64,000 bases of DNA, from contig CM059431.1 in NCBI GenBank assembly GCA_030390025.1, positions 117,926,001 to 117,990,000 on the forward strand. Reading direction: 5' to 3'. How positions within the stretch are numbered: the first letter of the stretch is position 1; the number at the start of each line of letters is the position of its first letter. Of this stretch, positions 5,683 to 49,612 are shown piece by piece. The position numbers and the translations under genes are program-made. The notes beneath the pieces were generated by a model, which saw only the letters and a list, made by a program, of their open reading frames with translations, was not told where the DNA came from and did not search any database. Origin of the DNA: Squalus acanthias. Its lineage: Eukaryota.

Positions 5683-8009
5683 ACTTTTAATCTTTTTCTA
5701 GTTCATATTTTCAAATCTGTTTGCAGGACATTAAGGCCTAGAAAATAAGAGCTGTGGAAACCTGCTGGTGGCACCGCGGGCCGTAGTTAACGGCCGCCAA
5801 AATTAATAGCGCTGGCAGCACCGGTATTATGATGCTGCTTGCTAATTGACATTAGTGCAGCGCTAAACTTACTGTGCAAGGCCGGTTTTCATGCCGGTAA
5901 TCTCAGCAGGAGGCCGAATGCAGCATGGCCATAGTGTCATTGCAGCTGCAGCAAGACCAGCCTTCTCTTAAAGCAAGGCTGTCATTTTAGAAAGTAGTGC
6001 GATCCCTTAAAGGGGAACTAACTTCTAAAATTGAAAAAAATAAAACACATTTAAAAATAGGCAGTTTTTAGCCCTTACAGCTCAACTGCCTTCTGAAAAA
6101 TAATTAACATTAAAAAGAATTTCCAAATGGCAGTCATCAGCTCTTAAAGCTGAATTGCCTTCTGCACCTAAAAAGCTTCAGCACTATCACTAATGGCTCA
6201 ACAAGTCATGGAGCGGCATCCAGGGTCTTGCACACAGCACTCCAGCTTTGTGCAGGGGGTCAACACTGCAAGAGAGGTCCTCTACCCACAGGGGCCAGAA
6301 GGCCCTCCAGAAAGAACGATGTAGGAGCAGATCATCAAGGCCATTACTGCCATCAGTGTCGCCCCCATGACCTGGCTCCAGTGCTCAAAGAAGCTTCATG
6401 ACCTCAGATCAGTGGTCAAGGTCAATGAATGCATATTCAAAAGGCATCTTCTACCTACTGCCCCACTAGCCCCACACACTGCTCATTGCACGATCCCCGC
6501 CCGCTCAATCACACACCTACCAACAATCACTCACCTACCAACAAACACGAGGCACACCTCCCATTCCTAGCTTTGCCTCACCCCCCTTTGAAGAGTTGGT
6601 GTTGGCCATTCTTGGCAGGGACATGGCTGAGCCCTTGGCCAGCAGCAGGGCTGAAAGGACACAAGAGTCTGATAACCTTGTGCGTTATCCTTCTTCTCGC
6701 ATGTGCCTCTTGCTTTCCTGCCCTCCCCTCAACACAACTCCACCCTTGTGCCTTCCTCATTTCACACACCCAAGAAATCCAGCCTGCCCAGCCAATGGTT
6801 GACCAAGAAGAGAGAGAGGATAATGAAGAAGAAGAAGAAGAAACACCAACACTCGATTTGAAACTCCCAGCCACCAGCTCCTCAAGGTTGACCTGCAAGG
6901 CCATTTGCAGTGTCCCCCACTGAAAGTCAACAGCCTCCCACCAGCCATGCTGCAGCCACTGGGGTAGCACTGCATGACATCAGTAGGATAGGCAAAGACA
7001 CATACAAGACAGACACTAAAGGGAATGCACAAAGGTGATGAGTTGATTTCTTGGTGCCATATTGAATGGATAGCTGTATAAAGTTGGATTGGAAAGTTTT
7101 CTTTGTGGTTGCTTTTATTTCAGCATTGTGGCCTAGAGGACGCTGTGATGGTCAGTAACAGAGGGAAGGTATGGTGTGGGACTAATGTTGAAAGGGAATT
7201 GGTGTAAAGGAATAGCCATATTTCAGAAAAATACACCATCCTATGAACAGAATTCTGACTTTATTAAAATATGACAAACTGGGTTTAAAAATCTAAAAGA
7301 CTCAATGACACAAGCTGTGAATACAGGCTTCTGAGATAAAATGAGTCACAAAGCAGTAAACACCATACAAGCTTTTGAAATGGGAATTGGTTGTAAATAC
7401 TAAGACAATGGCCTCATTGAAACAGAGGGTTGGAGGTTCCAAGAAGTCTGCAGTTTGGAACCAACACAATAGCTATACCCAGTTTAAAGTGTTAAAAAGT
7501 AGCACTTCAAACAGAAACACAGAGCATTAAAGAAACATGTGCCTTTGTAACATTAACATCACATGAAAGACAGGAAACATAAGTTTGTAATACAACCAAT
7601 TGAAGTAGATAAGAAATGCATAGAACACCCTAGTTGAAGTGTTTTTGATTTACATATTGTAAAAGTTACAAACAGAAGACTTTGTAAATATTACATCAAT
7701 AGATGCACCAAGCAATCACATGGTTTTTGTATTGAACTTGGAAAAGTTGGGAGACGCAAAGTCTGGGTTACAAGCAGCTGAGGTGGTTTAAGAATTCAAT
7801 AGAAGACCTTCCTAAGAATCGCATCAAATAGATACAAAAGTCAAATTGTTTTTTATGATAACATTCAAACACCTAAAGGTAGAGACAGAATTCTGCAAGT
7901 TAACAGCTGAACTGACAGTAAGATTAGAAAGAAGTCAACAGAGATATGACTAGAGATAATTAGCTTACATCAGCAGAAAACTTCAAAGAATATACCACTG
8001 CAAAAAGAG

Positions 8010-8016
8010 TATAAAA
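8010..8016 (+). promoter_or_regulatory. LTR TATA box (TATAAAA)
   Basis: Conserved in 3' LTR at 13250; followed by a splice donor and AATAAA in U3-R order. Confidence 0.65.
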
Positions 8017-8079
8017 TATAGAGCTTTCAGATAGGAAGTCAGAAGGGCAAAGCGATTCTCAACTTCAGAGGCAGGCTCT

Positions 8080-8085
8080 GTAAGT
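8080..8085 (+). promoter_or_regulatory. Putative major splice donor in R (GTAAGT)
   Basis: Consensus donor about 40-50 nt downstream of the inferred cap site; conserved in 3' LTR at 13331. Confidence 0.55.
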
Positions 8086-8297
8086 TTTTAACTCTTTGAG
8101 TCTCGGGGATCAAACGGTACTTTTATTTGATTTTGGTGGATATTCTGGATTAAGAATAAGACTTAGAAATGTAAAAATGTAACAAAGTTAAGATTTGAGA
8201 ATAAGGATCTCTGAGAATAAGAAATGTAAGCTATTTGTATTTTGAACTGTTAAAGTTGCGATTGACTCACCAACTGTTAACTACATGTCAGTTCTTT

Positions 8298-8303
8298 AAT
8301 AAA
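8298..8303 (+). terminator. LTR polyadenylation signal AATAAA
   Basis: Present in both LTRs downstream of TATA box and donor. Confidence 0.6.
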
Positions 8304-8650
8304 TCTATATATTTTTAGAATTGTGTCACAGAGTATTTCTGTATCAAACTCGCAAACTCAATCTCTGTACACTCTTTTGTGAGGTTGCAGAATTCTGGGG
8401 GGGTTTCCGGACCCTCATAATATCCGGAAGGTTACAGTCTAGTTAAACTTATTAAAAGTGCTATCTGGAGGACAGTAATATCTTCAAGTCATTTCTTTCC
8501 TTTAGGGAGAGATAGTCTGGACCTTTAGACCCAATTAAGTGTCTTATAGGATTCGGCTATCTCTAACTTTAGTTGAAGGGGAACGTCTGGGGAATACGCC
8601 TGATCTGGGGTTTCCCGAGAAGGGCTAGGACTTGTAATTATCCCTTCAGT

Positions 8651-8668
8651 TGGCGCCCAACATGTGTG
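8651..8668 (+). promoter_or_regulatory. Primer binding site, tRNA-Lys1,2 type
   Basis: TGGCGCCCAACATGTGTG 2 nt after the LTR end; first 11 nt match the Lys1,2 PBS TGGCGCCCAACGTGGGGC used by foamy viruses. Confidence 0.85.
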
Positions 8669-8942
8669 TTAATGAGTTGATATAGTACCTATACTTATAT
8701 TTATATCTATATATATCCTGTAGATTGTTAAGTATAGAAGGAGTGTTTCTGATAGTGGTACTAAGACCCAGATTTAAGTTTCTAGAGACGACAAGTCCCT
8801 GATCAGGCCTTGTAGAACTTAAATCAGAACTCCCTCAATATACCATTGAGGTCTAGAAGCTTCTTATAAAGTTCATATTAAACCCTAACCAAGGTTAGGT
8901 CCTGACGAAATTAAACCCTAACCGAGGTTAGGTCCTGAAGAA

Positions 8943-9556
8943 ATCGCAAACCCTGTCGGAATTGACCAAGTCTTTTTATTAGGAAATTCAAATGATTGCT
9001 TTATTAGGGGAAATAATCCTATCCCTGTACCTCCACAAAACCAAGTGATAATTTTTGAAATAGAAGGTTTTGATGCCGAAGGAGCCGTTCGAACTCATGG
9101 CATGATTAATGTTGATCCCCAGAACCAGGGGATACAGAATATCCAGTGGGATAATCAAACAAATACTCCAAATCCAATAAATTCCTTAATGATAAGGTGC
9201 ACACCTGCACAATTGGGAGGCCTAATGAACGGTGCCCAACAAGGTGGTGACAACCATGGCCGAATAGCAGGACCCAGAGCAGCCTATGCTCCTGGGGGCC
9301 ATGGATTCCAGTTAAGGTGGCAAGCTCATGATGAAATAAATGACCAGAATCTTCGAGAAAACTATAGACAGCTTAGAATTCAAGATAATAAACGGTCTGA
9401 CATACCCCCTAAGGGATCTGGAAAACATAATACCCTCAAGAGGGAGGAACAAAAATCAGTTAAAATAATTAAAGATAAAGCAGCAAATCAAACTCAGGAT
9501 CTTGAGGATGAACAATCCCAGGATTGGAGGCCTGGCACACAGCCAGGGCCTCTTGA
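8943..9556 (+). pseudogene. gag: Foamy-like Gag, N-terminal domain plus C-terminal tail, central region deleted
   Basis: Frame open from 8922; probable mutated start ATC at 8943 (IANPVG); PVPPQNQVIIFEIEG and GRIAGPRAAYAPG resemble the PFV Gag N-terminus; only ~205 codons. Confidence 0.65.
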
Positions 9557-11800
9557 ATTCCCCTATGCCCTCGCAAACTTGCCCACAAACACACAAGTGA
9601 AGGCTCTGTTTGATACGGGAGCTGATTACACTGTAATAGATCCTCCAATTATAAAAACTAAGGGGACAGATTTGGGTAACCCAATTTGTAAAAATCCATT
9701 AGGGGGATTCACACAAGATGAAACCAAAATGATTAATTTTTACAAAATACCTATTACTATATATGGAATCACGGTGACCCTAGATGTAGGACTGGTACCA
9801 CAATTGGCCTGTTCCCTCATTATAGGACAACCAGACATGAAACATTATCTTAAAATTCAGCCAAACCTGTAGAAGCATCCAGAGACCAGGATGACAGGGA
9901 AAAACATGTTTGAATACAGCTTGATCGAACTTGCCTAGAGGGGGGAGGCAAAGACCTTCTCGAGCAACTCATTAATAGATACTACCCTTATCTATAACAC
10001 CATACAAATCAATGTGGAAAGATAGAGCATCTCCCCATCATGAAGGATGATGATACGGAGGAGGGAATAAGACAAATAGCTATGAGACCGCTTACAGAAT
10101 ACCATCAAGTTATTTACTGTGATGGATCGTCAATGACGATTAAAAAAGGGACATCCCAACAATCCTCAGCTGGGATGGGGATAGTAGTAGGGACTTTTTG
10201 AGATTCCTATTCTTTTTATCAAGAAGAATTACTGTCCATACCCCTTGGCCATAAGACAGCACAATATGCTGAAGCCGCAGCATTATGGTATGCTTTAGAG
10301 AAAGCAGACCCTATTAAACCCACACTAATCTGAACGGATAGTGACTACTGTAAAAGAGGATATAACCAAGATCTAGTTTTCTGGGAACAAACAAATTTTA
10401 CCAATCATAAGGGTAAACCCATAAAGCATAAGTCATTGTGGGAAGAAATTCTCCGTTCGAGGATGGAGAAACAGAATTGTCAGGTGATTCATGTAAACAG
10501 GGCATACCACTGGGACAGTACACTCTAAAGGAAACAGCCTTGCTGACGAACAAGCAAAACGTTCGGTCTGCATGACACCCCCTCAAGAGGGGCCTGCCAA
10601 TGTTAGTGTAATCACTAGGGCAGAACGGGCAGCTAATCAGGATGAGGAACTGATTCAGCTATTAGACCCAACACAAGAGAATCCACCAGGATATCCACCA
10701 AAGTACTCTTACTCGGAAACCCCTACGGGTATAGTACTAGTTAAGTTGCCCAAGGGAAACCAAGAAGTACCCCCGAGCCACAAACGAGAACAGCTTGTAA
10801 AAGAAGCTCACGAGGGCATAAGTCAAGCACATTGTGATGCCAGAACAACATTCTGCAAATTGACCCCCTAATATTGGTGGCCAGGCATGCTTTGAGCCTG
10901 TAAAACATACGTGGCAAATTGTGAGCCATGCTATTTGACCAACAAATCATCACTAATTAAGCCACCACCATTGGCTCCTGTGAAAGCTGATGAGCCAATG
11001 CGAAAATTCTTTATTGACTTTATTGGACCACTTCCCCCATCTTTGGGATATAGACATGTTCTTGTTTGTGTGGATGGATGCACTTCCTTCTGCTCGCTGG
11101 TCCCCATAAAAACTGTTTCGGAAAACGCACTTGCCAGGGCTATTTCTGATATAATTACTGTAGCTGGTGCACACAAAATCTTACACTCTGATCAAGGTGG
11201 AGCCTTTGTATCCAAGGTCTTCAAAGACTACTGCGAACAAAGGGGGATTGGCTTAGTGCACAGCACGCCACGTCATCCGCAATCAGCGGGGCTGGTGGTA
11301 TGTAAAAACCAGGAAGTAAAAAAGCTATTGGTCAAACTGTTGAGAATTAGGGGGAATAAGTGGACCACCATCATTCCGGAGGTGCAGCTATCACTCAATG
11401 ATGTTCCCACATCTGCATCAGGGACAGTGTCCCCTAAAGCTCCATATTATCTGATGTATGGGGTTGAGATAGTTCTTTTATTGCCTCTACACACTCTGAG
11501 TCCTTGACCCGACAGCGACAGTTAGATTTAAAAAAAGAAGTAACAGAGAAGATTCATCGAATTGATCAGAGGATAAGGGAGGCAAATAGGCAGAAAAAAT
11601 TGACAAATAAAGCATGGCAACCCATAGTAGGAGAATGGGTACAGGAAAAGACGTTCGAGCAAAAACCTGGTTTAAGACTGAAGTGGAAAAAACCTGTTCA
11701 AATACATTCTGTTATTAACGAAAGAACAGTTCAAATACATAATAATCACCCGAATGGCAAGCATATTCTTAAAATTGTCTCCATAGACAATATCAAGAGA
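9508..11800 (+). pseudogene. pol: Foamy-like Pol: protease, RT N-terminal stub, RNase H, integrase; RT core deleted; stops and frameshifts
   Basis: ALFDTGA protease; VIYCDGS, AGMGIV, SIPLGHKTAQYAE, TDS, KPIKHKSLW, GNSLAD RNase H; GYPPKYSY, YWWP, KFFIDFIGPLPPSLGY, HSDQGGAF, STPRHPQS, WQPIVGEWVQE, VSIDNIK integrase. Confidence 0.92.
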
Positions 11801-12167
11801 TGCCCTGTGGGATACCGAAAAGGAGGAACAATACAAGGTGCAGTCGTACATTGTCTTTCAAGACCCAGCTTGGAGCACGACACAGGAAATGGATGCGATC
11901 GAATTACTGATGATGGTCAGTCAGACGGTGTCACCGGCTCTTCTACACGATGCTTGGCAACGCATCAGGAGTTGGATTTGCGAAAAGCAACAACCGAAAC
12001 AAGGAAAGATCAACAAGTTACTTCAGCGAAGGAGGAAGACATCGCGGATGAAGAAGGAATCAACTGAGTGCCTGGCAAGGCCTTTACGACAACAAGCATC
12101 TGTACACACGCCGGATCGAAGGAACAGCGTGTCAAGCTTCAATTACTTTCACATGACGTCTCCTTGA
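11787..12167 (+). other. Unassigned open frame between integrase and 3' LTR, candidate accessory gene remnant
   Basis: About 126 stop-free codons with basic cluster QRRRKTSRMKK; no hydrophobic Env features. Confidence 0.4.
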
Positions 12168-12433
12168 CTCGTATGAATAACTCACCTCTACGGAACATAC
12201 ATCTGCCGATTGGACATTCTAAGTACATGTTGTTGCGCTAATAGCATGACTATGTACTATCATCCTTTTAAATTGTGTTCAATTTAAAATAAGGCAAAAC
12301 ATTGTCCTAGGATGACTTAAAAGGAATTTTCATGTAACACATGATTATGAATCTCATGAAATTAATATGCTATTGTAACCTGATTTTTATCATTGACCAA
12401 ACTCTGCCCTGATGTTTTAAGCTCATCGTTTGG

Positions 12434-12442
12434 TCAAGAGGG
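12434..12442 (+). promoter_or_regulatory. Short 3' polypurine tract region (TCAAGAGGG)
   Basis: Abuts the TG of the 3' LTR with no spacer; ends AGAGGG like the foamy PPT AGGAGAGGG. Confidence 0.7.
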
Positions 12443-13903
12443 TGTAAAGGAATAGCCATATTTCAGAAAAATACACCATCCTATGAACAGAATTCTGACT
12501 TTATTAAATTATGACAAACTGGGTTTAAAAATCTAAAAGCCTCAACGACACAAGCTGTGAATACAGGCTTCTGAGATAAAATGAGTCACAAAGCTGTAAA
12601 CACCATACAAGCTTTTGAAATGGGAATTGGTTGTAAATACTAAGACAATGGCCTCATTGAAACAGAGGGTTGGAGGTTATAAGCAGTCTGCAGTTTGGAA
12701 CCAACACAATAGCTATACCCAGTTTAAAGTGTTAAAAAGTAACACTTCGAACAGAAACACAGAACATTAAAGAAACATGTGCCTTTGTAACAGTAACATC
12801 AAATGAAAGACAGGAAACATAAGTTTGTAATACAACCAATTGAAGTAGCTAAGGAATGCATAGAACACCCTAGTTGAAGTGTTTTTGATTTACATATTGT
12901 AAAAGGTACAATCAGAAGACTTTGTAAATATTATATCAATAGATGCACCAAGCAATCACATGGTTTTTGTATTGAACTTGGAACAGTTCGGGGACGTGAA
13001 ATCTGGGTTACAAGCAGCTGAGGTGGTTTAAGAATTCAATAGAAGACCTTCCTAAGAATCGCATCAAATAGATACAACTGTCAAATTGTTTTTTATGATA
13101 ACTTTCGAACACCTAAAGGTAGAGACAGAATTCTGCAAGTTAACAGCTGAACTGACAGTAAGATTCGAAAGAAATCAACAGAGATATGACTAGAGATAAT
13201 TAGCTTACATCAGCAGAAAACTTTAAAGAATATACCACTGCAAAAAGAGTATAAAATATAGAGCTTTCAGATAGGAAGTCAGAAGTCGCTGGAAGGGGCA
13301 AAGCGATTCTCAACTTCAGAGGCAGGCTCTGTAAGTTTTTAACTCTTTGAGTCTCAGGGATCAAACGGTACTTTTATTTGATTTTGGTGGATATTCTGGA
13401 TTAAGAATAAGACTTAGAAATGTAAAAATGTAACAAAGTTAAGATTTGAGAATAAGGATCTCTGAGAATAAGAAATGTAAGCTATTTGTATTTTGAACTG
13501 TTAAAGTTGCGATTGACTCACCAACTGTTAACTACATGTCGGTTCTTTAATAAATCTATATATTTGTAGAATTGTCTCACACAATATTTCTGTATCAAAC
13601 TCACAAACTCAATCTCTGTACACTCTTTTGTGAGGAGTTGCAGAATTCTGCGGGGGGGGTTACCGGACCTCATAATATCCGGGAGGTTACAGTCTAGTTA
13701 AACTTATTAAAGGTGCTATCTGGAGGATGGTAATATCTTCAAGTCATTTCTTTCCTTTAGGGAGAGATAGTCTGAACCTTTAGATCCAATTAAGCGTCTT
13801 ATAGGATTCGGCTATCTCTAACTTTAGTTGAAGGGGAACGTCTGGGGAATACGCCTGATCTGGGGTAGCCCGAGAAGGGCTAGGACTTGTAATTATCCCT
13901 TCA
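12443..13903 (+). repeat. 3' LTR (1461 bp)
   Basis: Direct repeat of the 5' LTR, roughly 50 substitutions plus small indels by manual count. Confidence 0.95.
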
Positions 13904-13969
13904 TTGGGGCTGTGGTTACTGGTACCACAGGCAGATGATTCCATCCCAGATTTCCCGGCCAGAAAGGTA

Positions 13970-20637: not shown

Positions 20638-22295
20638 GGCGTGAATACATGAACTCATTTCTCTTATTTGGAAGGAGGAGAGCATGCCAGGGGATCTCAG
20701 AGACGCCGTAATCGTGACCATCTTCAAGAAAGGTGACAAGTCCGATTGCGATAATTACAGAGGAGTCTCCCTGCTGTCTGCCACAGGGAAAGTCATCATA
20801 AGAATCCTCCTCAATCGCCTTCGGCCAGTGGCTGAAGAGTTCCTCCCAGAGTCGCAATGCGGATTCCGCCCACTAAGGGGCACAATGGACATGATCTTCA
20901 CCGCGCGTCAACTGCAAGAGAAATGCAGGGAACAGCACCAACTGCTGTACATGGCATTCTTTGATCTCACAAAGGCCTTCGACACTGTCAGCCGTGAGGG
21001 ATTATGGAGTGTCCTCCTCAAATTCGGCTGCCCTCAAAAGTTTGTCACCATCCTCCGCCTGCTTCACGATGACATGCAAGCCATGATCCTGACCAATGGA
21101 TCCATCACAGACACAATTCATGTACGGACCGAGGTCAAGCAAGGCTGTGTCATCGCACCAACGCTCTTCTCGATCTTCCTGGCTGCAATGCTCCATCTCA
21201 CCCTCAGTAAGCTCCCTGCTGGAGTGGAGCTAATCTACAGAACAAACAGGAAACTGTTCAACCTCCGTCGCCTCCAGTCCAGATCCAAGGTCGTCCCATC
21301 CTCTGTCATCGAATTACAGTATGCAGACGACGCTTGCGTCTATGCACACTCTGAGGTCGAACTCCAAGCCATCGTCACCGAAGTGTACGAGAGCATGGGC
21401 CTACACTAAACATCCTTAAAACAAAGGTCCACTACCAACCTGCCCCCACCACACAGTACTGCTCCCCGATTATCAAAATCCACGACTAGGCCTTGGACAA
21501 CGTGGACACTTTCATACCTCAGGAGCCTACTGTCAACAAGGGCAGACTGTCAATGACGAAGTCCAACACTGTCTTCATTGTGCCAGTGCAGCCTTCGGTC
21601 GCCTGAGGAAGAGAGTCTTTGAAGACCAGGACCTCAAACCCAGCACCAAGCTCATGGTCTACAGAGCAGTAGTGATACCCGCCCTCCTGTATGCTTCAGA
21701 GACATGGACATGTACAGCAGGCAGCTCAAAGCACTGGAGAGGTACCACCAATGCTGCCTCCGCAAGATCCTGCAAATCCATTGGCAGGATAGGCGCACCA
21801 ACGTCAGTGTTCTCGCTCAGGCCAACATCCCCAACATCGAAGCTTTGACCACGCTCGATGGACGGGCCACATCGTCCGCATGCCCGATACGAGACTCCCA
21901 AAGCAAGTGCTCGACTCGGAGCTCCTGACATGGCAAGAGAGCCCCAGGTGGGCAGAGGAAACACTTCAAGGACACCCTCAAAGCCTCCTTGAAAAAGTGC
22001 AAAATCCCCACCGACACCTGGGAATCCCTGGCCCAAGACCGCACAAAGTGAAGGAGAAGCATCCGGGAAAGCGCTGAACACCTCGAGTCTCTTCACCGGG
22101 AGCAAGCGGAAGCCAAGCGCAAACAGCGGAAGGTGCGCACGTCAACCCAAGCACCCCACCCACCCGCCCCTTCAACTACCGTCTGCCCCACCTGTGACAG
22201 AGACTGTAGGTCCCTATTGGACTCATCAGTCAGCTGAGAACTCATTTTTAGTGTGGAAGCAAGTCATCCTCGGTTCCGAGGGACTGCCTAAGAAG
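20638..22295 (+). mobile_element. RTE-clade (BovB-like) LINE, 5' truncated
   Basis: ORF 20684-21409 with NYRGVSLL, DLTKAFDTV, KQGCVIAPTLF, LQYADD; short AAG tail; TSD AATCAGCATCT / AATCTGCATCT. Confidence 0.88.
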
Positions 22296-24929: not shown

Positions 24930-25670
24930 GCACCTCTCCTGTGCACCTCTCTCCTGTGCACCTCCCTCCTGTGCACCTCCCTCCTGTGCACCTCTCTCCT
25001 GTGCACCTCTCTCCTGTGCACCTCTCTCCTGTGCACCTCCGTCCTGTGCACCTCTCTCCTGTGCACCTCTCTCCTGTGCACCTCCCTCCTGTGCACCTCT
25101 CTCCTGTGCACCTCTCTCCTGTGCCCCTCTCTCCTGTGCACCTCTCTCCTGTGCACCTCCCTTCTGTGCACCTCTCTCCTGTGCACCCTTCTCCTGTGCA
25201 CCTCCCTCCTGTGCACCTCCCTCCTGTGCACCTCTCTCCTGTGCCCCTCTCTCCTGTGCACCTCTCTCCTGTGCACCTCCCTTCTGTGCACCTCTCTCCT
25301 GTGCACCTCCATCCTGTGCACCTCCATCCTGTGCACCTCCATCCTATGCACCTCCATCCTATGCACCTCCCTCCTGGTGCACCTCCATCCTGTGCACCTC
25401 CATCCTATGCACCTCCCTCCTGGTGCACCTCTCTCCTGTGCACCTCCATCCTGTGCACCTCCATCCTGTGCACCTCCATCCTATGCACCTCCTTCCTGGT
25501 GCACCTCCATCCTGTGCACCTCCATCCTGTGCACCTCCCTCCTGTGCACCTCCATCCTGTGCACCTCCCTCCTGGTGCATCTCCATCCTATGCACCTCCC
25601 TCCTGTGCACCTCCCTCCTGTGCACCTCCCTCCTGTGCACCTCCCTCCTGTGCCCCACTCTCCTGTGCAC
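24930..25670. repeat. 15-bp minisatellite (CCTGTGCACCTCYCT), about 49 units, degenerate continuation at 26643-26745
   Basis: Directly visible tandem array. Confidence 0.95.
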
Positions 25671-33191: not shown

Positions 33192-34402
33192 TTGCAGGTA
33201 CTTTTGGATTTTGGCCTTCATTACTTTGATTACCAAGAGACTTCAGGGGCTGCACTGATTCGGGGCGTCGTCCTGCGCCTGCAGATTTGGATGCAACATA
33301 GACGCAGAGAGAGAGTGGCAATCATGGCCAGACGGAGGAGGGCCAACAGGCCTCTGTACAGGAGACCTTACCCTCCCAGGGTATATCACCAACAATTCAC
33401 ATATATTAATATGTCTGAGGAGCAGTGTTTGCGAAGGCTGCGCTTCAGCAAGGAGGTAGTCACTGAGCTCTGCCACCTGCTGCAGCCAGATCTGCAGCCT
33501 CGACTGAGGTCCAGGACGTCTCTGTCGGTGGCAGTGAAGGTCACAGTGGCTCTGAACTTTTATGCCACCGGCTCCTTTCAAGCAGCTACTGGGGACATCG
33601 CCAATATCTCCCAGTTCACGGTCCATTGCTGCATCCGTCAGGTCACAAATGCCCTCTATAAAAGGAGACGAGAGTACATCTCTTTCCCGATGAGCCGGGC
33701 CAAACAGCATGAACACGCATTGGGCTTTGCGAGGATAGCGGGCTTCCCCATGGTGCAGGGCGCCATTGACTGCACGCATGTGGCATTGCGTGCACCGCAA
33801 AGAATGCAGGGAATTTCCGCAACCGCAAGGGGTTCCACTCCTTTAATGTCCAGTTGGTCTGTGACCACAGACAGCTGATACTCGCTGTCAATGCCCGTTA
33901 TCCTGGTAGCAGCCACAATGCATTCATCCTGCGCCAGACTGCTGTGCCAGAACTTTTTCAGGCACTGCATCAGCCAAGTGGTTGGCTCCTCGGGGACAAG
34001 GGTTATCCACTGTGCACCTGGCTGATGACACTGCTCCGTAACCCCAACACCCCTTCTGAGCTGCGGTACAACGAGGGCCATCTCGCCGCCAGGAACGTCG
34101 TTGAGCAGACGATCGGCATGCTCAAGCAACGGTTCCGCTGTCTGGACCACTCAGGAGGAGCCCTGCAGTACTCACCTGAGCGAGTCTCCCTCTTCATAGT
34201 TGTTTGCTGCATACTGCATAACCTGGCAATCCTCAGGACCCAGCCAATGCCACCAGGCCTTGGAGCACCACCGGAGGAGGAGGAGGAAGAGGAGGAGGAA
34301 GAGGAGGAGGATGATCATCAGCAGCACCAAGGCGGGGGGGCGGCCCACAATGTTGAAACTGGAAGGGCCGTCCGTCAACGGCTGATAGCAAGCCGCTTCT
34401 AG
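33192..34402 (+). pseudogene. Harbinger DDE transposase (HARBI1-like family), one frameshift near 33800
   Basis: GAIDCTH, RKGFHSFNVQLVCD (after frame change), LLGDKGY, RNVVEQTIGMLKQRFRCL, CCILHN; true start uncertain (ATG at 33291 possible). Confidence 0.9.
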
Positions 34403-36279: not shown

Positions 36280-37496
36280 AATAACAACAGAAAACGCTGG
36301 AAAAACTCAGCAGGCCAGGCAGCATCCGTGGAGAGAGAAAGAGAGTTGACGTTTCAGGTCGATGACCTTTCATCAGAACTGGGAAGAGCTGGAAATCAAA
36401 TAGATTTAAGGCCAGGGTAAAGCTGGGAAAAGGGGGAGGGGATAAAGGAACAAAGGAGGAGATGAAGAGACATTAAGAGACATTAAGAGATATGCAAGGC
36501 TAGAGGTGGTGTTAATGTGACAGATTAAGGCTGAATGAAGTGTGAAATCTACTGGCAGAATGAAGGACAGCTGCCAGCTTCTAGGAGGAAAAAAAAGGTG
36601 GGGGGGACAAATAAAAGGGTGGATAAAATAAAATATAAATGTGATTGGAGCTGAGGTTATGATCTAAAATTGTTGAACTCGATATTGAGTCCAGAGGGCT
36701 GTAGCGTGCCTAAACGAAAGATGAGGTGCTGTTCCTCGAGCTTACGCTGAGCTTCCGTGGAACAGTGTATTAGGCCGAGGACGGTGAGGTCAGAGTGGGA
36801 GTGAAGCGGTGAATTAAAGTGACAGGCCACCGGGAGCTCGGGGTCCCCCTTACGGACTGAACGGAGGTGTTCCGCAAAGCGGTCACCCAATCTGCGTTTG
36901 GTCTCCCCAATGTAGAGGAGTCCACATCGTGAGCAGCGAATACAGTATACTAAATTGCAGGAAGTACAAGTAAATCGCTGTTTCACCTGGAAGGGGTGTT
37001 TGGGGCCCTGGACAGTGGGAAGAGGGGAGGTATAAGGGCATGTGTTGCATCTCCTGCGCGTGCACGGGAAGGTGCCGGGCGAAGGGGAAGGGGTGCTGGG
37101 GGTGGTAGAGGAGTGGACTAGGGTGTCGCGGAGGGAGCGGTCCCTGCGGAATGCTGAAAGGGGAGGTGAGGGGAAGATGTGTTTGGTGGTGGGATCACGC
37201 TGGAGGTGGCGGAAATGGCGGAGGATGATCCGTTGAATGTGGAGGCTGGTGGGGTGAAAGGTGAGGACAAGGGGAACCCTATCGTGGTTCCGGGAGGGAG
37301 GGGCAGGGGTGAGGGCAGATGTGCGGGAGATAGAACGGACACGGTCGAGGGCCGTGTCGACCACGGTAGAGGGGAATCCTCGGTTGAGGAAAAAGGAAGA
37401 CATGTCGGAAGCACTGGTATGGAAGGTGGCATCATCAGAGCAGATGCGGCGGAGACGGAGAAAGTTATTTCGGATTTCCAGCATCTGCAGTATTTT
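36280..37496 (-). mobile_element. Penelope-like element, 5' truncated, GIY-YIG region open
   Basis: ORF 36657-37484 with LVYCIRCSRCGLLYIGETKRRLGDRFAEH; TSD GCCATGGTCTTGCCTGA / GCTATGGTCTTGCCTGA. Confidence 0.92.
36344..36380 (-). ncRNA. Minimal hammerhead ribozyme
   Basis: Minus strand AGTT-CTGATGA-AAGGTCATCGACCT-GAAAC-GTC-AACT: intact core, stems I and II, GUC triplet. Confidence 0.8.
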
Positions 37497-38281
37497 GCTA
37501 TGGTCTTGCCTGATGTGCCTCCCATAGTTGAATAGCCCTTACTGTATGCAAAGTGTGGAATGTGCATCTGTGTTTCATGAGAGTGCCATAGGTATTGGAT
37601 GAGTGTTGGACATTGGGGTTTTAAGACCCTCTGGCCATAGAGTGAGGTTGAGATGGAGGGATGGAGAGGTATTGAAAAAAAGCCACTCACCCTGACGACC
37701 TGAGTGAGGTCGTTGAACTTTTTGCGACATTGAGTATGGGTCCTGGGCACCATGCTCCTGGAGGAGACGTGCTGAGCCACCTCCCTCCACACTCTTCTGT
37801 ACTCATGCGGCAAAGGCCTCCTGCCACTCTCAGGGAAGAGTATAGATCTTCTGCGCTCCACCGCACCAACCAGAGCCTCCAAGGCCCGCTCGCTGAAGCG
37901 CTGAGCTCGTTCTCTCACCCTCTCCATAGTCCTTGGCTAGAAAATGTAGTCCCAGGTCTCTCCAGGCCGAGATTCAAGGCTCCAATGAGTAGGGTGTGGC
38001 TGGAGAGCCTCCCCATTAAGAACTGTCCGGCGCCAGTGTGTCTGTGTTCCATCGCTAACTGACATCACCTGCGCTGCGCCCGCGCTCTGAGTTAACGCCT
38101 CGCTCCTCGGCCTTTGCGCCTTAAGACAGGTGTGCAGCGCCTGATTTAGCGCTCCAATCACCTCCAGGGGCGATAAAAGCCAAGTTTGCAGTCGGAGGCG
38201 ATAATTAGTGCCAGGCACTAATCTTTGCGCCCAGCCGATAATCGCGCCCCAAACGGGGCGATACTGGATTTCTCCCCCTTG

Positions 38282-43159: not shown

Positions 43160-45874
43160 GAGAGATTCAGGTGTCAAGGATCGCAAGCTTCAACAACTCT
43201 TGGACACTAATGCCCCTCCGGAACCTTCTTCCCCTTCACTTTCCTCTGACCCCATCCCTTCTCCCAATCTCACCCCCTGTCGCGTTTTCACTATCCCCTC
43301 TGACCTTCCCATCTCTGACCCCGAACGATAGTCCTTAGCAAAGGCCTGAGCTTCATCCCCTTGCGCCCCCACCTCAATGAATTTTGAGCTCAGCACGACG
43401 CTGAGCTCTTTTTCCGCTGCCTTCGTCTCCATACCCACTTCTTTGGCCAGGAGTCTTCCCCCCGCATGGCTGACCCTTTCTCCCGCTTTCAGAATTCTCG
43501 TTCTATCTGGACCCCTCCCTCTGGCCTCTTAACCTGTCTAGATCTTTTCATTGCAAACTGCCGGCGTGACATCGGCCGTCTCCATTTCTCTGCTCCCCTC
43601 ACTCACTCCAACCTACCTCCCTCTGAACTTGCAGCACTCCATTCTCTCAGATCCAACCCCAACATTGTCATTAAACCTGCTGACAAGGGTGGTGCTGTTG
43701 TTGTTTGACGAACCGACCTCTAACTCACGGAAGCTGAACGCCAACTCTCCGACACCTCCTCCTACCTCTGCCTGGACCATGATCCCACTACCGAACATCA
43801 AGCCACCGTTTCCAAGACTGTCACTGACCTCATCTCCTCTGGAGATCTTCCCCCCACTGCCGCCAACCTCATAGTTCCCCAACCCCGCACAGCCCGCTTC
43901 TACCTCCTTCCCAAGATCCACAAACAGGACTGCCCTGGTAGACCCATCATTTCAGCCTGTTCTTGCTCCACGGAACTTATCTCTTCCTATCTCAACTCTA
44001 TTTTTCTCCCCTTGTCCAGTCTCTTCCCACCTACATCCGCAGCTCATCCGATGCCCTCCGCCACTTCAACAGTTTCCAGTTTCCTGGCCCCAACCGCCTC
44101 CTTTTCACTATGGACGTACAATCTCTCTACACCTCCATCCCCCACCAGGATGGCCTGAGGGCGTTCCGCTTCTTCCTTGAACAGAGGCCCGACCAGTCCC
44201 CATCCACCATCACCCTCCTCTGCCTGGCTGAACTTGTTCTCACATTGAACAACTTCTCCTTTGACTCCACTCACTTCCTCCAAATCAAAGGTGTTGCTAT
44301 GGGAACCCGCATGGGTCCTAGCTATGCCTGCCTTTTCGTGGGATATGTGGAACACTCTTTGTTCCAGTCCTACTCAGGTCCCCTCCCTCACCTCTTTTTC
44401 CGGTACATTGATGACTGTCTCGGTGCCGTTTCCTGCTCTCGCCCTGAACTAGATAATTTTATTCACTTTGCTTCCAATTTGCACCCTTCCCTCACCTTCA
44501 CATGGTCCATCTCCGACTCTTCCCTTCCCTTCCTCGACTTCTCCATCTCCATCTCTAGGGATAGGTTAATGACAAACATTCACTACAAGCCCACTGACTC
44601 CCACAGCTACCTGGACTACACTTCCTCCCACTCCGCCTCCTGTAAGGACTCTATTCCATTCTCCCAGTTTCTCCGTCTCCGCTGCATCTGCTCTGATGAT
44701 GCCACCTTCCATACCAGTGCTTCCAACATGTCTTCCTTTTTCCTCAACCGAGGATTCCCCTCTACTGTGGTTGACACGGCCCTTGACCGTGTCCGTTCTA
44801 TCTCCTGCACTTCTGCCCTCACCCCTGCCCCTCCCTCCCGGAATCACGATAGAGTTCCCCTTGTCCTCACCTTTCACCCCACCAGCCTCCACATTCAACC
44901 GATCATCCCCCGCCATTTCCGCCACCTCCAACGTGATCCCACCACCAAACATATCTTCCCCTCACCTCCCCTTTCAGCATTCCGAAGGGACCGCTCCCTC
45001 CGCGATGCCCTGGTCCACTCCTCTATCACCCCCAACACCCCTTCCCCTTGCCCGGCACCTTCCCGTACAAGCGCAGGAGATGCAACACATGCCCTTATAT
45101 CTCCCCCCTTCCCACTGTCCAGGGCCCCAAACACCCCTTCCAGGTGAAACAGTGATTTACTTGTACTTCTTGCAATTTAGTATACTGTATTCGCTGCTCA
45201 CGATGCGGTTTCCTCTACATTGGGGAGACCAAACGCAGATTGGGTGACCGCTTTGCGGAACACCTCAGTCCGTAAGGGGGACCCCGAGCTTCCAGTCGCC
45301 TGTCATTTTAATTCTTCGCACCACTCCCACTCAGACCTCACCGTCCTCGGCCTCTTGCATTGTTCTACTGAAGCTTAGCGGAAGCTCGAGGAACAGCACC
45401 TCATCTTTCGATTAGACACTTTACAGCCTTCTGGACTCAACATAGAGTTCAACAATTTCAGATCATAACCTCGGCCCCTATCATATATATATTTTTCATC
45501 CACAATTTTTTGTCTGTGTCTTTTTTTCTTCTCTCCCACATGGCAGCTATCTTTCATTCTGCCAGCACAATTCACACTTCATCTCGAGCCATCCTTTGTT
45601 TCTTAACCTGTCCCATTACCATCTCCTTTTGCCTTGAATATCTCTTAATGTCTCTTAACCTCTCCTGCCTTCTATTCTATCACAGACCTTCCCTTTTGTT
45701 CTTTCATCCCCTCCCCCCTTTCCCAGCCCCTGCACTTGCTTAAAAATCTGTTCCACTTCCTGCTTTTTTCCAGTTCTGACGAAAGGTCATCGACCTGAAA
45801 TGTTAACTCTGTTTCTCTCTTCACAGATGCTGCCTGACCTGCTGAGTATCTCCAGCATTTTCTGTTTTTATTAT
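43160..45874 (+). mobile_element. Penelope-like element with RT and GIY-YIG, disrupted
   Basis: IKPADKGGAVVV, TMDVQSLYTSIP, GVAMGTRMGP, FRYIDD, LYIGETKR; 15-bp TSD AGCAGAAAGATAAAG. Confidence 0.93.
45772..45808 (+). ncRNA. Minimal hammerhead ribozyme motif with altered stem III
   Basis: AGTT-CTGACGA-AAGGTCATCGACCT-GAAAT-GTTAACT. Confidence 0.65.
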
Positions 45875-48679
45875 AGCAGAAAGATAAAGATGGGTGTCAT
45901 CGGCATGCATATGGTACTTAATCCTGTGCTTCTGAACAATGCCATGGGGGGCTGCATATTAATGATTAAATAGTGGGGAACAAGGATGGAGCCCTGTGGT
46001 ACAATTTTGAGGTGTTCAAATCAGGCCAGTTGCACAGCAAATGCATTCAAGCTTATAACCTACAGATTTGAAGCCATGAAGGTAGCTGTCATACTGGGGG
46101 CATGATAGGATTGAGAGATCATTGGAAATCTAGTCAGGATAAGGGCATTAAAGATAAAGGCCAGGTAATTATAGAGGAGATAAATACAGGCATCAATATC
46201 GTCATGGGTGGCAGACTAGAGAAGTGATGAAATCAGAATTTGAGACATTCTCCGTGAATAAATTAGAGGGTAGTTTTTTTCCAAGTGTAGAAAGTAAAAG
46301 TGGAGGAAGATTTGGCTGTCAGGGGATGTGTTGAAGGAAGAAAGTAAGAAAAAGAATCTGAGAGAGTTCTATCAGTAATAGAGATCTCAGAAATTTTGAG
46401 GTACTATGTGATAAAGAGGTCAAGGTGTGGCCATGCATCTGGGTGGGAGAGTTTATATCGAGGATGAGGTTGGAGTAAGTGAGAAAGGCAAGAAAGTCAT
46501 CGGAGATAGGGGAGGAGAAGATAACATGAAGGTCAGAATCAACAAGGATCAGGAGTCATTCAGGTGCAGAGACTGAAGACAGACAATGACTGCTCAAAAG
46601 TTGTGCTTGGTACGGTTATGTCACCTGTCTTCTGTGCTCAGGCCATAAGTATATCAGCATACTCCAGTGGCAATATATGGTACAAACATTTACAACTCTT
46701 TTTAGATACCTGCACTATCTACCTACAATATAATGTGCTATTTTAAATCTGATGCCTTGAAATTACACCATGGGTTATTAACAAAGGAGCACTTAACAAG
46801 TTCATTGGAATTTCCTCTCTCTGCTATTTTAGAAGTGGCATTAACCTTATTAATTAAATGGACTGATAGCTGTGCTAAAATAATGAAGAGGGTAATTACA
46901 CATCAACACGTTAAGCTGTTACATTAATACTCCTCACTGTAATTTCAGGGTCTGTGCATTTTTTAGCTTACAGCGAGGCCATTTTTTTTCACAGATCATT
47001 AAATTTATCTCACAACTGGTATGTCTCTCTGTGCTTGTCTTTCCCTCTTCAACCTGCTCTCACTCTTGCATTTTCCGTTGCTGAATGTTGCTTGAATATC
47101 TCTCTGCTTAACTCTCCTTTGCCTCTACTTCTCTGTTTACTCTTCAAAGAGCTTTGGGGCTCATTGGAACTTGCCTTTCCATTTCTTGGTTACTCTCTCC
47201 CGGGTGTAGTTTGTTTGTACCATTGCTTGCTTTAATTCCAGCCAAGTTATCCAAATTGTTATGCCAGCAATGTTGAAATTGCTCCATAAATACAAGTTGT
47301 TTCAGCCATAGTATGGAATCTAGTTCATACCACCACTATATCAGTAAGTATATTTTGTCTAGATTTTAAGCCAAGAGTAAAAGGTCAGTTGGGAGAGCAT
47401 GACAAGTTAGAAGACAAGACAAGCTAGCTTGAGTCAATTAGCACTGGAATAGTAATAGATTAACAGGAAGGGAAAGAGATGTCAGAAGAAGAAAATACAA
47501 GCACCAGAGGGCAAATGAAAGATGGAGATTAAGTTAAAATCGTGGGATAGGGATTAAAAATAACTTCGCTGTTTTTCTCCCTCTTTGTCTCTCATGCTCC
47601 CTTTTCAATAATTGCAAAATGCTCGGAGCCATTTTTTTCTGTGTGAGGAGCAGTAGAGAAATGTATATTCATGTAGTGAATCACTTTCTTTACAATTGGC
47701 AATGAGCTTGGTTCCCAATTAGCAATCTGTAGTGAGGGGGAAGTGTGTTAGAATTGAAAATGCAGCTGCAAAAAGATCATACAGTGTTATATCTCACATA
47801 AGGTTCAAATCTTTAAGATGGTAACAATGGAAAGGAAAGCTGTTATTGTCAACAATATTTTATGCATATTAATCAAAAAATAGAAGCTAGCCATTAGACT
47901 TAAATATATCTTCTCTTAACGTATTAACACAGTAAGTATTTGTTGATTTGTCATTTTGGAATGACAAAACATGAATATTGCTTTTGAAACCTGTTTTTAG
48001 TGCAAGTCTGATTGCCAACGTGCATTAAAAATGTTAATATCTAGATACTGCATGCCATTTACAATAATTATCATAATCCCTGGAAGGATGGTTGATTGTT
48101 CTCTGATGGGTTTCTTTTTAGTATTTTGTTCCTGAGGTCTTCAATATTTTTTTTAATCAAACCAGCTTCCAATTAAGACAACCTTATTTCTGAGTGATCG
48201 TTTAGCCTCCTGTGTGACCCCCAAATGATAATTTGATATGCATTGAATTCGTTCCCCTAAACATAACATCAAAATTACAGCAAAATAATTATGATGTTCT
48301 CAAGTTAAAAAAAAATATTTAAAAAAAACTTTCATCAGAAAGTGACAATTTGCTGAATGTCCAGTCCCAGTGTGGAAACTGAGCCAGCCTCCCTCAATGG
48401 GCATGTTCCCCATGATTTTCCATTCACTAATATTAAGGAGTGAGGTCCTGTTGTCTGTAATGCCCATATTCAGAGTTTGCAATGTTAAGGGTGGGAGATA
48501 TAGGTGCTGCAGGGTTTCATCATCTCTGCAAGGGCATTCGTCTGTATTGTTTGTGGAGGCAAGTTTTGCTTAATTTTATATCAAGACAGCAAGGAGCATA
48601 GAAGCAGCCCAGGAAGCAGCAGGAAGACCTAGAGGTTTTCAGATGGTAGCCTGCAGGGGCTACTGAAGCAGGTGTGGCT

Positions 48680-49612
48680 GCTCGGAAGGGACCGCTCCCT
48701 CCGCGACACCCTGGTCCACTCCTCTATCACCCCCAACACCCTTTCCCCTTCGCCCGGCACCTTCTCGTGCAAGCACAGGAGATGCAACACCTGCCCTTTT
48801 ACCTCCACCCTTCCCACTGTCCAGGGCCCCAAACACTCCTTCCAGGTGAAACAGCGATTTACTTGTACTTCTTGCAATTTAGTATACTGTATTCGCTGCT
48901 CACGATGCGCTCTCCTCTACATTGGGGAGACCAAATGCAGATTGGGTGACCGCTTAGCGGAACACCTCCATTCAGTTCGTAAGGGTGACCCCGAGCTTCC
49001 GGTCGCCTGTCACTTTAATTCTCCGCTCCACTCCCACTCTGACCTCACCGTCCTCGACCTCTTACACTGTTCTAATGAAGCTCAACATAAGCTCGAGGAA
49101 CAGCATCTCATCTTTCGATTAGGCTCTTTACAGCCTTCTGGACTCAACATAGAGTTCAACAATTTCAGACCATAACCTCTGCCCCTCTTTTTTTTTCCAT
49201 TCATTTTATTTATTAAATATATTTTTTTACACTTCATCTAGGGCCATCTTTTGTTTCTTAACTTGTCCTGTTGCCATCTCCTTTTGCCTTGCACCAACTC
49301 TTAATGTCTCTTAATCTCTCCTGCCTTCCATCTAGAGCCATCTTTTGTTTCTTAACTTGTCCCATTACCATCTCCTTTTGCCTTGCACCATCTCTTAATC
49401 TCTCCTGCCTTCCATCCTATCACAGACCTTCCCTTTTGTTCTTTCCTCCCCTCCCCCGTTTCCCTGCCCCTGCACTTGCTTAAAAACCTGTTTGATCTCC
49501 AACTTTTTCCAGTTCTGATGAAGAGTCATCAACCTGAAACATTAACTCTGTTTCTCTCTCCACAGATGCTGCCTGACCTGCTGAGTATTTCCAGTATTTT
49601 CAGTTTTTATTT
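48680..49612 (+). mobile_element. Penelope-like element, 5' truncated
   Basis: ORF 48672-49175 with GIY-YIG (LVYCIRC...LYIGET); 11-bp TSD CAGGTGTGGCT; decayed hammerhead at ~49511. Confidence 0.9.

Follow-up and report, generated by a model that had tools for sequence, protein, structure and literature searches.

A provirus with intact ends and a much shortened interior raises the question of whether the missing parts were lost before or after insertion and, if before, how such a genome was multiplied. This question is posed by an element located at positions 7203–13903 of a 64,000-nt stretch of the Squalus acanthias genome (contig CM059431.1; the stretch is hereafter called the window, and coordinates refer to it and to its forward strand unless stated otherwise). 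The element is a provirus with two long terminal repeats (LTRs) enclosing a shortened gag, a pol from which the core of reverse transcriptase (RT) is missing, and a stub of env. The initial annotation, made from the window sequence, had described a compact genome with 3 large deletions, non-autonomous and mobilised in trans by a helper virus. We compared this copy with its relatives elsewhere in the same 3.7-Gb genome. In our assessment, it is highly probable that the element is a decayed env-less foamy-like provirus, that its gag and RT deletions predate integration, and that the multiplication of such genomes probably relied on Gag and Pol provided in trans by siblings with RT.

A direct-repeat search placed the 5′ LTR at 7203–8648 and the 3′ LTR at 12443–13903, both with TG...CA ends, and the 3.8 kb between them agrees with the interior length given in the initial annotation. 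The 2 LTRs differ by a Kimura two-parameter distance (K2P) of 0.034 over 1,454 nt and are flanked by a target-site duplication (TSD), TTGG, whose copies at 7199–7202 and 13904–13907 are identical (4 of 4 positions in the TSD script). The 3 deletions differ in extent as follows: (i) at the gag joint (9380–9389), long copies hold approximately 970–1,120 extra bases, the gap being 993 nt in 2 of the 6 copies measured and 972, 982, and 1,122 nt in 3 others, with one copy measured from another anchor; (ii) at the RT joint (10023–10026), 1,272 nt (424 codons), including the YVDD motif, are absent in 5 of the 7 copies measured, the other 2 giving 1,273 and 1,265 nt; and (iii) at the env joint (12125–12129), env-bearing copies match the window up to approximately 12096–12129 and resume from approximately 12125, with the flanking segments 3.2–6.2 kb apart in the env-bearing copies on C20, C17, and C4, a distance partly due to later insertions. 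The gag and RT joints are in frame, as had been proposed and as translation of both sides confirms. The joints lie on imperfect repeats of 3–10 nt: TCA[TT/AG]ATAAT at the gag joint (the window has the rare AAG variant), TAGA(G)CATC at the RT joint (TAGA being the microhomology), and TGA at the joint of a further deletion form, the mini lineage described below. The first 2 joints fall where the initial annotation had put them (near 9385 and 10030), and the third lies about 300 nt away from its estimate of 11800.

The gene content of the window copy fits this description with some corrections. The shortened gag (8943–9524) comprises 194 codons, slightly fewer than the 205 or so first counted. 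Pfam found protease, RNase H, integrase core, and SH3 matches in the open reading frames (ORFs) of the window copy, and neither RVT_1 nor an env domain, which bears out a pol lacking the YXDD core. The single continuous pol frame proposed earlier does not hold: by our reading of the ORF list, the frame shifts near positions 9855, 10500, and 11480 and is interrupted by about 6 stops. The window provirus is thus dead, with about 3 frameshifts and 6 stops in pol. The statement that no env follows integrase is correct for env as a gene; a stub of about 78 env codons, from the N-terminus of the leader peptide, is nevertheless retained in an ORF of 126 codons (11787–12167) in a frame other than that of pol, and the loss is common to 383 loci rather than specific to this copy.

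This last number comes from a census of the joints, in which 26-mers across each joint were searched genome-wide, allowing up to 2 mismatches (3 for env); reversed-pattern controls gave 0 matches. The RT joint was found at 65 loci, against 125 loci with an intact left RT boundary. The common ATT variant of the gag joint was found at 38 loci, and the AAG variant of the window matched 6 loci, of which 4 are true AAG and 2 are the ATT variant at 2 mismatches, giving a total of about 42 (38 + 4) against 162 loci with an intact left gag boundary. The env joint occurs at 383 loci; env loss is therefore a family trait that stands at the origin of the entire amplified family and does not set the window copy apart. 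The mini joint occurs at at least 78 loci, so that RT-deleted and mini loci (65 + at least 78) outnumber the RT-bearing ones (125). Thus, no joint is unique to the window locus, which runs counter to a reading as local decay. A count for an integrase 26-mer, aimed at copies without integrase, is uninformative, since the window form is 3 mismatches away from the commonest variant and its 161 matches are a floor. The family copies analysed were the best 40 candidates per search. The RT-deleted set comprised 62 of the 65 loci, namely the window, C20, and 60 further loci; the maps show 30 of these as gag-long, 21 as gag-deleted, and 11 as truncated or otherwise rearranged.

The shared joints belong to separate insertions. 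We fixed the LTR ends from the primer binding site (PBS) and the polypurine tract (PPT) and dropped 3 other boundary rules, which gave shifted ends. TSDs could be resolved at 15 of the 62 RT-deleted loci and at 11 of 40 mini loci, the rest having no LTR pair in the sequence taken around them or failing a motif. Of the 15 resolved RT-deleted copies, 9 are flanked by perfect TSDs of 4 bp, no two of them alike, and the other 6 agree at 3 of 4 positions (another boundary rule gave 11, 6, and 1 of 18); in the minis all 11 are perfect and distinct. Foamy viruses generate target duplications of 4 bp, and this trait is present both in the window and in its resolved relatives. Flanks are shared among RT-deleted loci only in L095–L098 with L116, in L108 with L118, and perhaps in L082, L101, and L102, so we count roughly 55–60 separate RT-deleted insertion events. 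C20, which carries all 3 deletions, matches the window solely from LTR end to LTR end. A non-autonomous genome, as first proposed, is therefore indicated by joints common to many independent insertions with TSDs of their own. LTR K2P ranges from 0.023 to 0.065 in RT-deleted copies, apart from the outlying L108/L118 pair at 0.126, and from 0.011 to 0.063 in 5 RT-bearing copies; the ages thus overlap, and possible helpers integrated during the same period.

Some of the loci just named have peculiarities of their own. One insertion is present twice, as L108 and L118, and its large LTR distance may reflect a provirus with LTRs from 2 subfamilies. L095–L098 and L116, on small contigs, have 4.8–6.6 kb of common flank, which points to segmental duplication or to haplotigs left unplaced. 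In L065 (G000:C1:259842254-259852253), the left flank matches the right one at many offsets with 85–93% identity, and this insertion therefore sits in a tandem repeat.

The evidence for multiplication in trans comes from the codon positions of variants in the RNase H–integrase region. Singleton variants were taken as decay after insertion and shared variants as changes during spread, with CpG sites excluded. In the main RT-deleted clade (36 copies), shared variants are spread evenly over codon positions 1, 2, and 3 (69, 60, and 61; p = 0.68 against 1:1:1). By contrast, the 17 RT-bearing copies show a clear third-position excess (23, 12, and 39; p = 0.0006), and the 2 spectra differ (Fisher p = 0.003). 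Singletons are flat across codon positions in all groups, and a second run gave the same picture. Hence, the RT-bearing copies behaved as genes during their spread, and the RT-deleted clade diversified free of coding constraint, which indicates complementation in trans. In the RT-deleted clade, the balance of shared and single variants is no different in RNase H–integrase than in the 3′ tail, with an odds ratio (OR) of 0.81 (p = 0.19). A constraint profile over the whole interior was not used, because singleton density varied 2-fold from region to region and the rows of the minis were out of register; its 3′ part was redone.

The codon test thus supports the trans part of the original proposal, while the infectious helper virus that accompanied it finds less favour. 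The helpers were likely not infectious viruses; the better candidates are the env-less RT-bearing siblings. The course of events that we propose is as follows. The gag and RT deletions would already have been present in the RNA genome at integration and may have arisen when RT switched templates (copy choice) from one short imperfect repeat to another. Complete RNAs and deleted ones would have been co-packaged and recombined, the env-less RT-bearing subfamily would have supplied Gag and Pol in germ-line cells, and spread would have taken place through intracellular retrotransposition. More tentatively, 2 parts, namely the leader plus 5′ gag and the block of RNase H and integrase, might have been kept for action in cis, like the cis-acting sequences (CAS) CAS-I and CAS-II of foamy vectors.

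Several observations weigh against this reading, and they concern the minis and the tree. In the minis, gag codon 38 (window position approximately 9058) is fused in frame to the DGSS motif of RNase H (approximately 10122). Of the 42 loci matching the joint with no more than 1 mismatch, we sampled the first 40 (L120–L159; e.g., L123 at G000:C15:2528623-2535923). Most of them are uniform 5-kb elements composed of an LTR, the leader with gag codons 1–38, RNase H–integrase, an env stub, and an LTR, and the LTR K2P of resolved minis is 0.030–0.050. Their shared variants show a third-position excess (38, 25, and 53; p = 0.006), their RNase H–integrase has fewer shared variants than the tail (OR 0.64, p = 0.018), and 4 of the 40 have open frames of 630–687 aa, two of which begin upstream of the joint. 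The absence of purifying selection on the remaining genes, a trait of copying in trans, therefore fits the RT-deleted clade and fails for the minis, which may have supplied their own integrase, the block being kept as a gene.

These results are the strength of the best-surviving rival explanation, namely that the deleted genomes were not pure passengers and that the frame was kept since a fusion protein ending in integrase was needed in cis. The frame itself adds to it: 4 of the 5 recurrent internal deletions (gag, RT, a 111-nt RNase H deletion, and the mini deletion) are in frame, with p about 0.045 by our own calculation if one in three were expected. The statement that all deletions are in frame is refuted by the fifth, a 76-nt deletion in protease that removes the DTGAD motif in many RT-deleted copies and shifts the frame upstream of integrase. 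This deletion and the lack of codon bias in the main RT-deleted clade are hard to reconcile with a required fusion protein. Moreover, the minis form an unresolved basal grade in the tree, and autonomous relatives may therefore be the source of their coding signal, through inheritance or exchange. We therefore regard a need for the fusion protein as unlikely, though it is the alternative to be taken most seriously.

The tree of the RNase H–integrase region was computed with FastTree alone and rooted on the env-bearing copies. All 63 env-less copies form one clade with a support of 100, within which the tree groups 39 of its 45 RT-deleted copies into a single clade (support 98). The window, C20, L099, L107, and L080 fall outside this main clade, in a grade with 5 RT-bearing copies; the RT-deleted label thus requires 4 changes in the 3′ tree, and recombination or repeated deletion is needed to explain the copies outside the clade. 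L099 (G000:C3256:3042373-3052372) also has a 105-nt insertion inside RNase H, at window-equivalent position 10290. The gag and protease deletions each occur with 2 in-register joint variants, from which it follows that the repeats were used or resolved more than once. In addition, when gag, protease, and RNase H are each scored for presence of their deletion, the RT-deleted copies show 7 of the 8 patterns that are possible, again requiring recombination or repeated events.

The extreme form of repeated deletion is that every RT-deleted copy arose anew from full-length RNA by template switching at one hot-spot and that the deleted form was never copied. The paired joint variants and the lack of strict monophyly in the 3′ tree speak for it. 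Against it, all 65 RT joints fit one 26-mer at up to 2 mismatches on a repeat of just 4 exact bases. The 111-nt RNase H deletion (window 10324–10434) is present in about 49 of the 53 RT-deleted copies spanning the site and is absent from the window, C20, L099, L100, and all 17 RT-bearing copies. The 39-copy clade already indicates a copied lineage, and it diversified without codon bias. Repeated origin from full-length RNA at every locus is thus improbable. We read the mixed deletion states as the sign that the RT-deleted lineage replicated and exchanged segments with its siblings, for which 2 different RNAs per particle would then be needed; segment exchange by gene conversion after insertion may be an alternative.

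The initial annotation had also considered an origin from spliced RNA, and a precedent exists in the defective deltaTas genomes of primate foamy virus, which are reverse-transcribed spliced RNA. At the gag, RT, and mini joints of the shark family, no register has GT..AG ends and all 3 lie on short direct repeats; the env joint cannot be placed to the base. This origin is therefore very improbable. Post-insertion decay at the locus, or segmental duplication of chromosome stretches, has in its favour the few flank-sharing duplicates and the stops and frameshifts that the window copy did acquire after insertion, and is practically dismissed by the same joints at 65, about 42, and 383 loci over many contigs, by TSDs that are distinct between copies, and by the end of the C20 similarity at the LTR ends.

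The assignment of the family to the foamy viruses was examined in sibling copies, with L022 and L010 together representing a long copy. This long copy contains RVT_1 with YVDD, RNase H, and integrase. Its integrase matches that of prototype foamy virus (PFV) with an E-value of 5e-57, the second-best match being Ty3 (1e-8), and its RT matches foamy protease–RT with an E-value of 4e-57, again followed by Ty3 (2e-23); identity of the RT to simian foamy virus Pol is 49–51%. The Pfam family Gag_FV_central was matched with 34.5 bits (cut-off 30) in the middle of gag (L022:8668-8934), in the very segment that is deleted in the window, and RVP with 20.9 bits in the protease stretch of L022. Foamy_virus_ENV gave 11 matches, with scores over the cut-off at 6 or more loci; the 14 control genomes had none. 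These loci align to the window pol and tail, that is to say, on both sides of env, and the env-bearing translations continue from the stub into a hydrophobic anchor and then into the Foamy_virus_ENV match. Judged from the RT, integrase, Gag, and Env similarities of its relatives, the window provirus is a foamy-virus-like endogenous retrovirus (ERV). Three env-bearing relatives with foamy Env matches, L048+L049 (G000:C20:14474000-14493999), L052+L053 (C22), and L056+L057 (C4), branch outside all env-less copies, and the copy on C4 is the nearest to the env joint of the env-less family.

The family differs from mammalian foamy viruses in the arrangement of gag and pol. Expression of Pol from its own spliced mRNA, with no Gag–Pol fusion, is a hallmark of the mammalian viruses. 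In most copies of the shark family, gag is closed by a TGA codon and pol continues downstream without a change of frame. Among 61 copies, the boundary codon (9525–9527) is TGA in 47, TGG in 11 including the window, TAA in 2, and GGA in 1. The TGA with pol directly downstream in frame suggests a read-through-type layout.

The remaining features of the provirus are arranged as follows. The PBS TGGCGCCCAAC (8651–8661), read from the sequence, begins 2 bases 3′ of the LTR and is presumably the start of a Lys1,2-type site. The leader (8649–8942), present in both deletion lineages, carries a tandem duplication of 33 nt (8877–8944) with a palindromic core, just 5′ of the gag start. Each 33-nt unit, repeated 2.1 times, contains the near-palindrome CCTAACC..GGTTAGG, and the placement is reminiscent of the palindrome at the dimer linkage of foamy CAS-I. 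The fold of a hairpin at this repeat is not notable (z-score −1.76), and an Rfam search of the window gave no match. The gag start codon is ATC in the window copy and ATG in relatives. Downstream of the boundary codon lie protease (9528–9872; DTGAD at 9612–9626, weak RVP match in Pfam), a linker with the N-terminal RT stub (9873–10026, from alignment to RT-bearing copies), the pre-RNase H linker with RNase H (10027–10750; CDGSS at 10118–10132, Pfam RNase_H), and integrase (10751–11800) with its zinc-binding part, core, and C-terminal SH3 domain (Pfam rve and SH3_11). The stub of the Env leader peptide (11787–12125), which represents the cytoplasmic N-terminus, ends before the membrane anchor, as comparison with env-bearing translations shows. 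It is followed by the 3′ untranslated tail (12130–12442), which has the 3′ PPT at its end (12434–12442).

The 9-mer of the PPT, TCAAGAGGG, has 3 matches in the 64-kb window, all within the provirus: 9436–9444, 10583–10591 at the border of RNase H and integrase, and the 3′ PPT. The family-typical form at the 10583 site is TCGAGAGGGG, which is one base off TCAAGAGGG, and the exact match in the window is explained by a CpG change from it. We accordingly rejected the site as an exact PPT copy or central PPT of the family; the likeness is suggestive only.

Other repeats are found at 2291–2746 (−), 20645–21409 (+), 33770–34402 (+), and 24936–25670. Over the window as a whole, Pfam gives 2 RVT_1 ORFs and a DDE_Tnp_4 transposase ORF, the latter of which we take to be of the Harbinger type. 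A GIY-YIG ORF (36657–37538, −) and a weak RVT_1 ORF (43942–45147, +) are presumably Penelope-like, and an ORF at 48633–49175 (+) resembles the GIY-YIG ORF by eye. The window also contains a 15-nt minisatellite of 49 units.

Non-autonomous deletion derivatives copied in trans are known among mammalian ERVs, including ETn/MusD, IAP I-delta-1, and HERV-H. The shark family resembles them in that one internal deletion is found at many independent insertions, in numbers comparable to the coding-competent partner, and in that the residual genes of the main RT-deleted clade lack coding constraint. It differs from them in that it is foamy-type and non-mammalian, comprises several nested and recombining deletion lineages, and keeps approximately 2 kb of 3′ pol in every amplified lineage. 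A parallel also exists for the loss of env: env-deficient primate foamy virus reportedly retrotransposes within cells in culture (Heinkelein et al., 2000). Both cases combine env loss with amplification that proceeds without an extracellular phase, here at 383 loci; the former is a cell-culture result, and ours is a germ-line record from which the mechanism is deduced.

Closer relatives are the foamy-like ERVs (FLERVs) of fishes, which, according to the portions of the reports available to us, likewise have a Pol nearest to that of foamy viruses, many copies, and considerable age (ERV-Spuma, PMC10699275; PMC5512871; PMC4422223). For the catshark ERV-Spuma, the portion available states that no Gag or Env domain was detected (PMC10699275), which differs from the present family, where Pfam foamy Gag and Env domains were found in relatives of the window provirus. 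In the literature on foamy-like ERVs that we found, there is no account of env-less amplification, common deletion joints, or non-autonomous lineages, although subscription journals and supplements could hold one. CAS-II and endogenous foamy viruses were found together only in reviews of the assembly of exogenous viruses.

The blocks that escaped deletion invite comparison with foamy virus vectors. In the text of PMC5035957 at hand, the foamy virus PBS is described as complementary to tRNA-Lys1,2. There, PFV CAS-I is given as nt 1–645, covering R-U5, the PBS, the dimer linkage sequences, and approximately 200 nt of gag; CAS-II as approximately 1.8 kb that codes for the C-terminal domains of Pol and has purine-rich motifs, one of which duplicates the 3′ PPT; and CAS-III as the 3′ PPT with U3-R. 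Foamy viruses stand out among retroviruses in requiring a second packaging element in pol, a requirement for which vectors built from a small number of mammalian viruses are the only evidence (PMC5035957). The window copy and, more strictly, the minis keep R-U5, the PBS, the leader, and the first gag codons, together with a C-terminal Pol block carrying a polypurine-like motif and with the 3′ PPT and LTR, and, as in vectors, the proteins would be supplied in trans. The shark elements differ from vectors in being natural germ-line elements, not constructs, and the window copy has in addition retained protease and some of gag.

The maps of 62 RT-deleted and 40 mini loci agree in this respect: what is kept is the leader together with the first codons of gag, the block of 3′ pol, and the LTR with the 3′ PPT before it, and what is lost is a working gag, RT, and env. 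No deletion common to independent loci falls inside window 10435–12125 in these maps, inspected by eye. We regard it as possible, and as a tentative reading short of probable, that 2 separately arisen and separately spread lineages (65 and at least 78 loci) are natural counterparts of minimal foamy vectors that kept the same 2 blocks, one running from the leader to gag codon 38 and the other comprising RNase H–integrase and its polypurine-like motif. Counting against retention for a function in cis, the kept pol block of the RT-deleted clade shows no nucleotide-level constraint in the comparison with the tail given above (OR 0.81, p = 0.19), and the chance that 5 deletions would all spare a 1.7-kb block is, by a rough estimate, approximately 0.09.

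If the 2 blocks are not cis elements, the family is a well documented but ordinary case of non-autonomous ERV spread. Even so, an env-less foamy-like family here became a retrotransposon and spawned at least 2 parasitic deletion lineages, and the census, the TSDs, and the codon test together give a clean non-mammalian example of complementation in trans. The signs of recombination between the deletion forms suggest joint packaging of different genomes. If the retention does reflect cis elements, the requirement for CAS-I and CAS-II, thought unique to modern foamy viruses, would already have existed in a foamy-like virus of a cartilaginous-fish-type host, and the deletion map would bound the elements to window 8649–9058 and 10435–12125. 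A hallmark of foamy virus assembly would then be dated very deep, and mapped without bench work.

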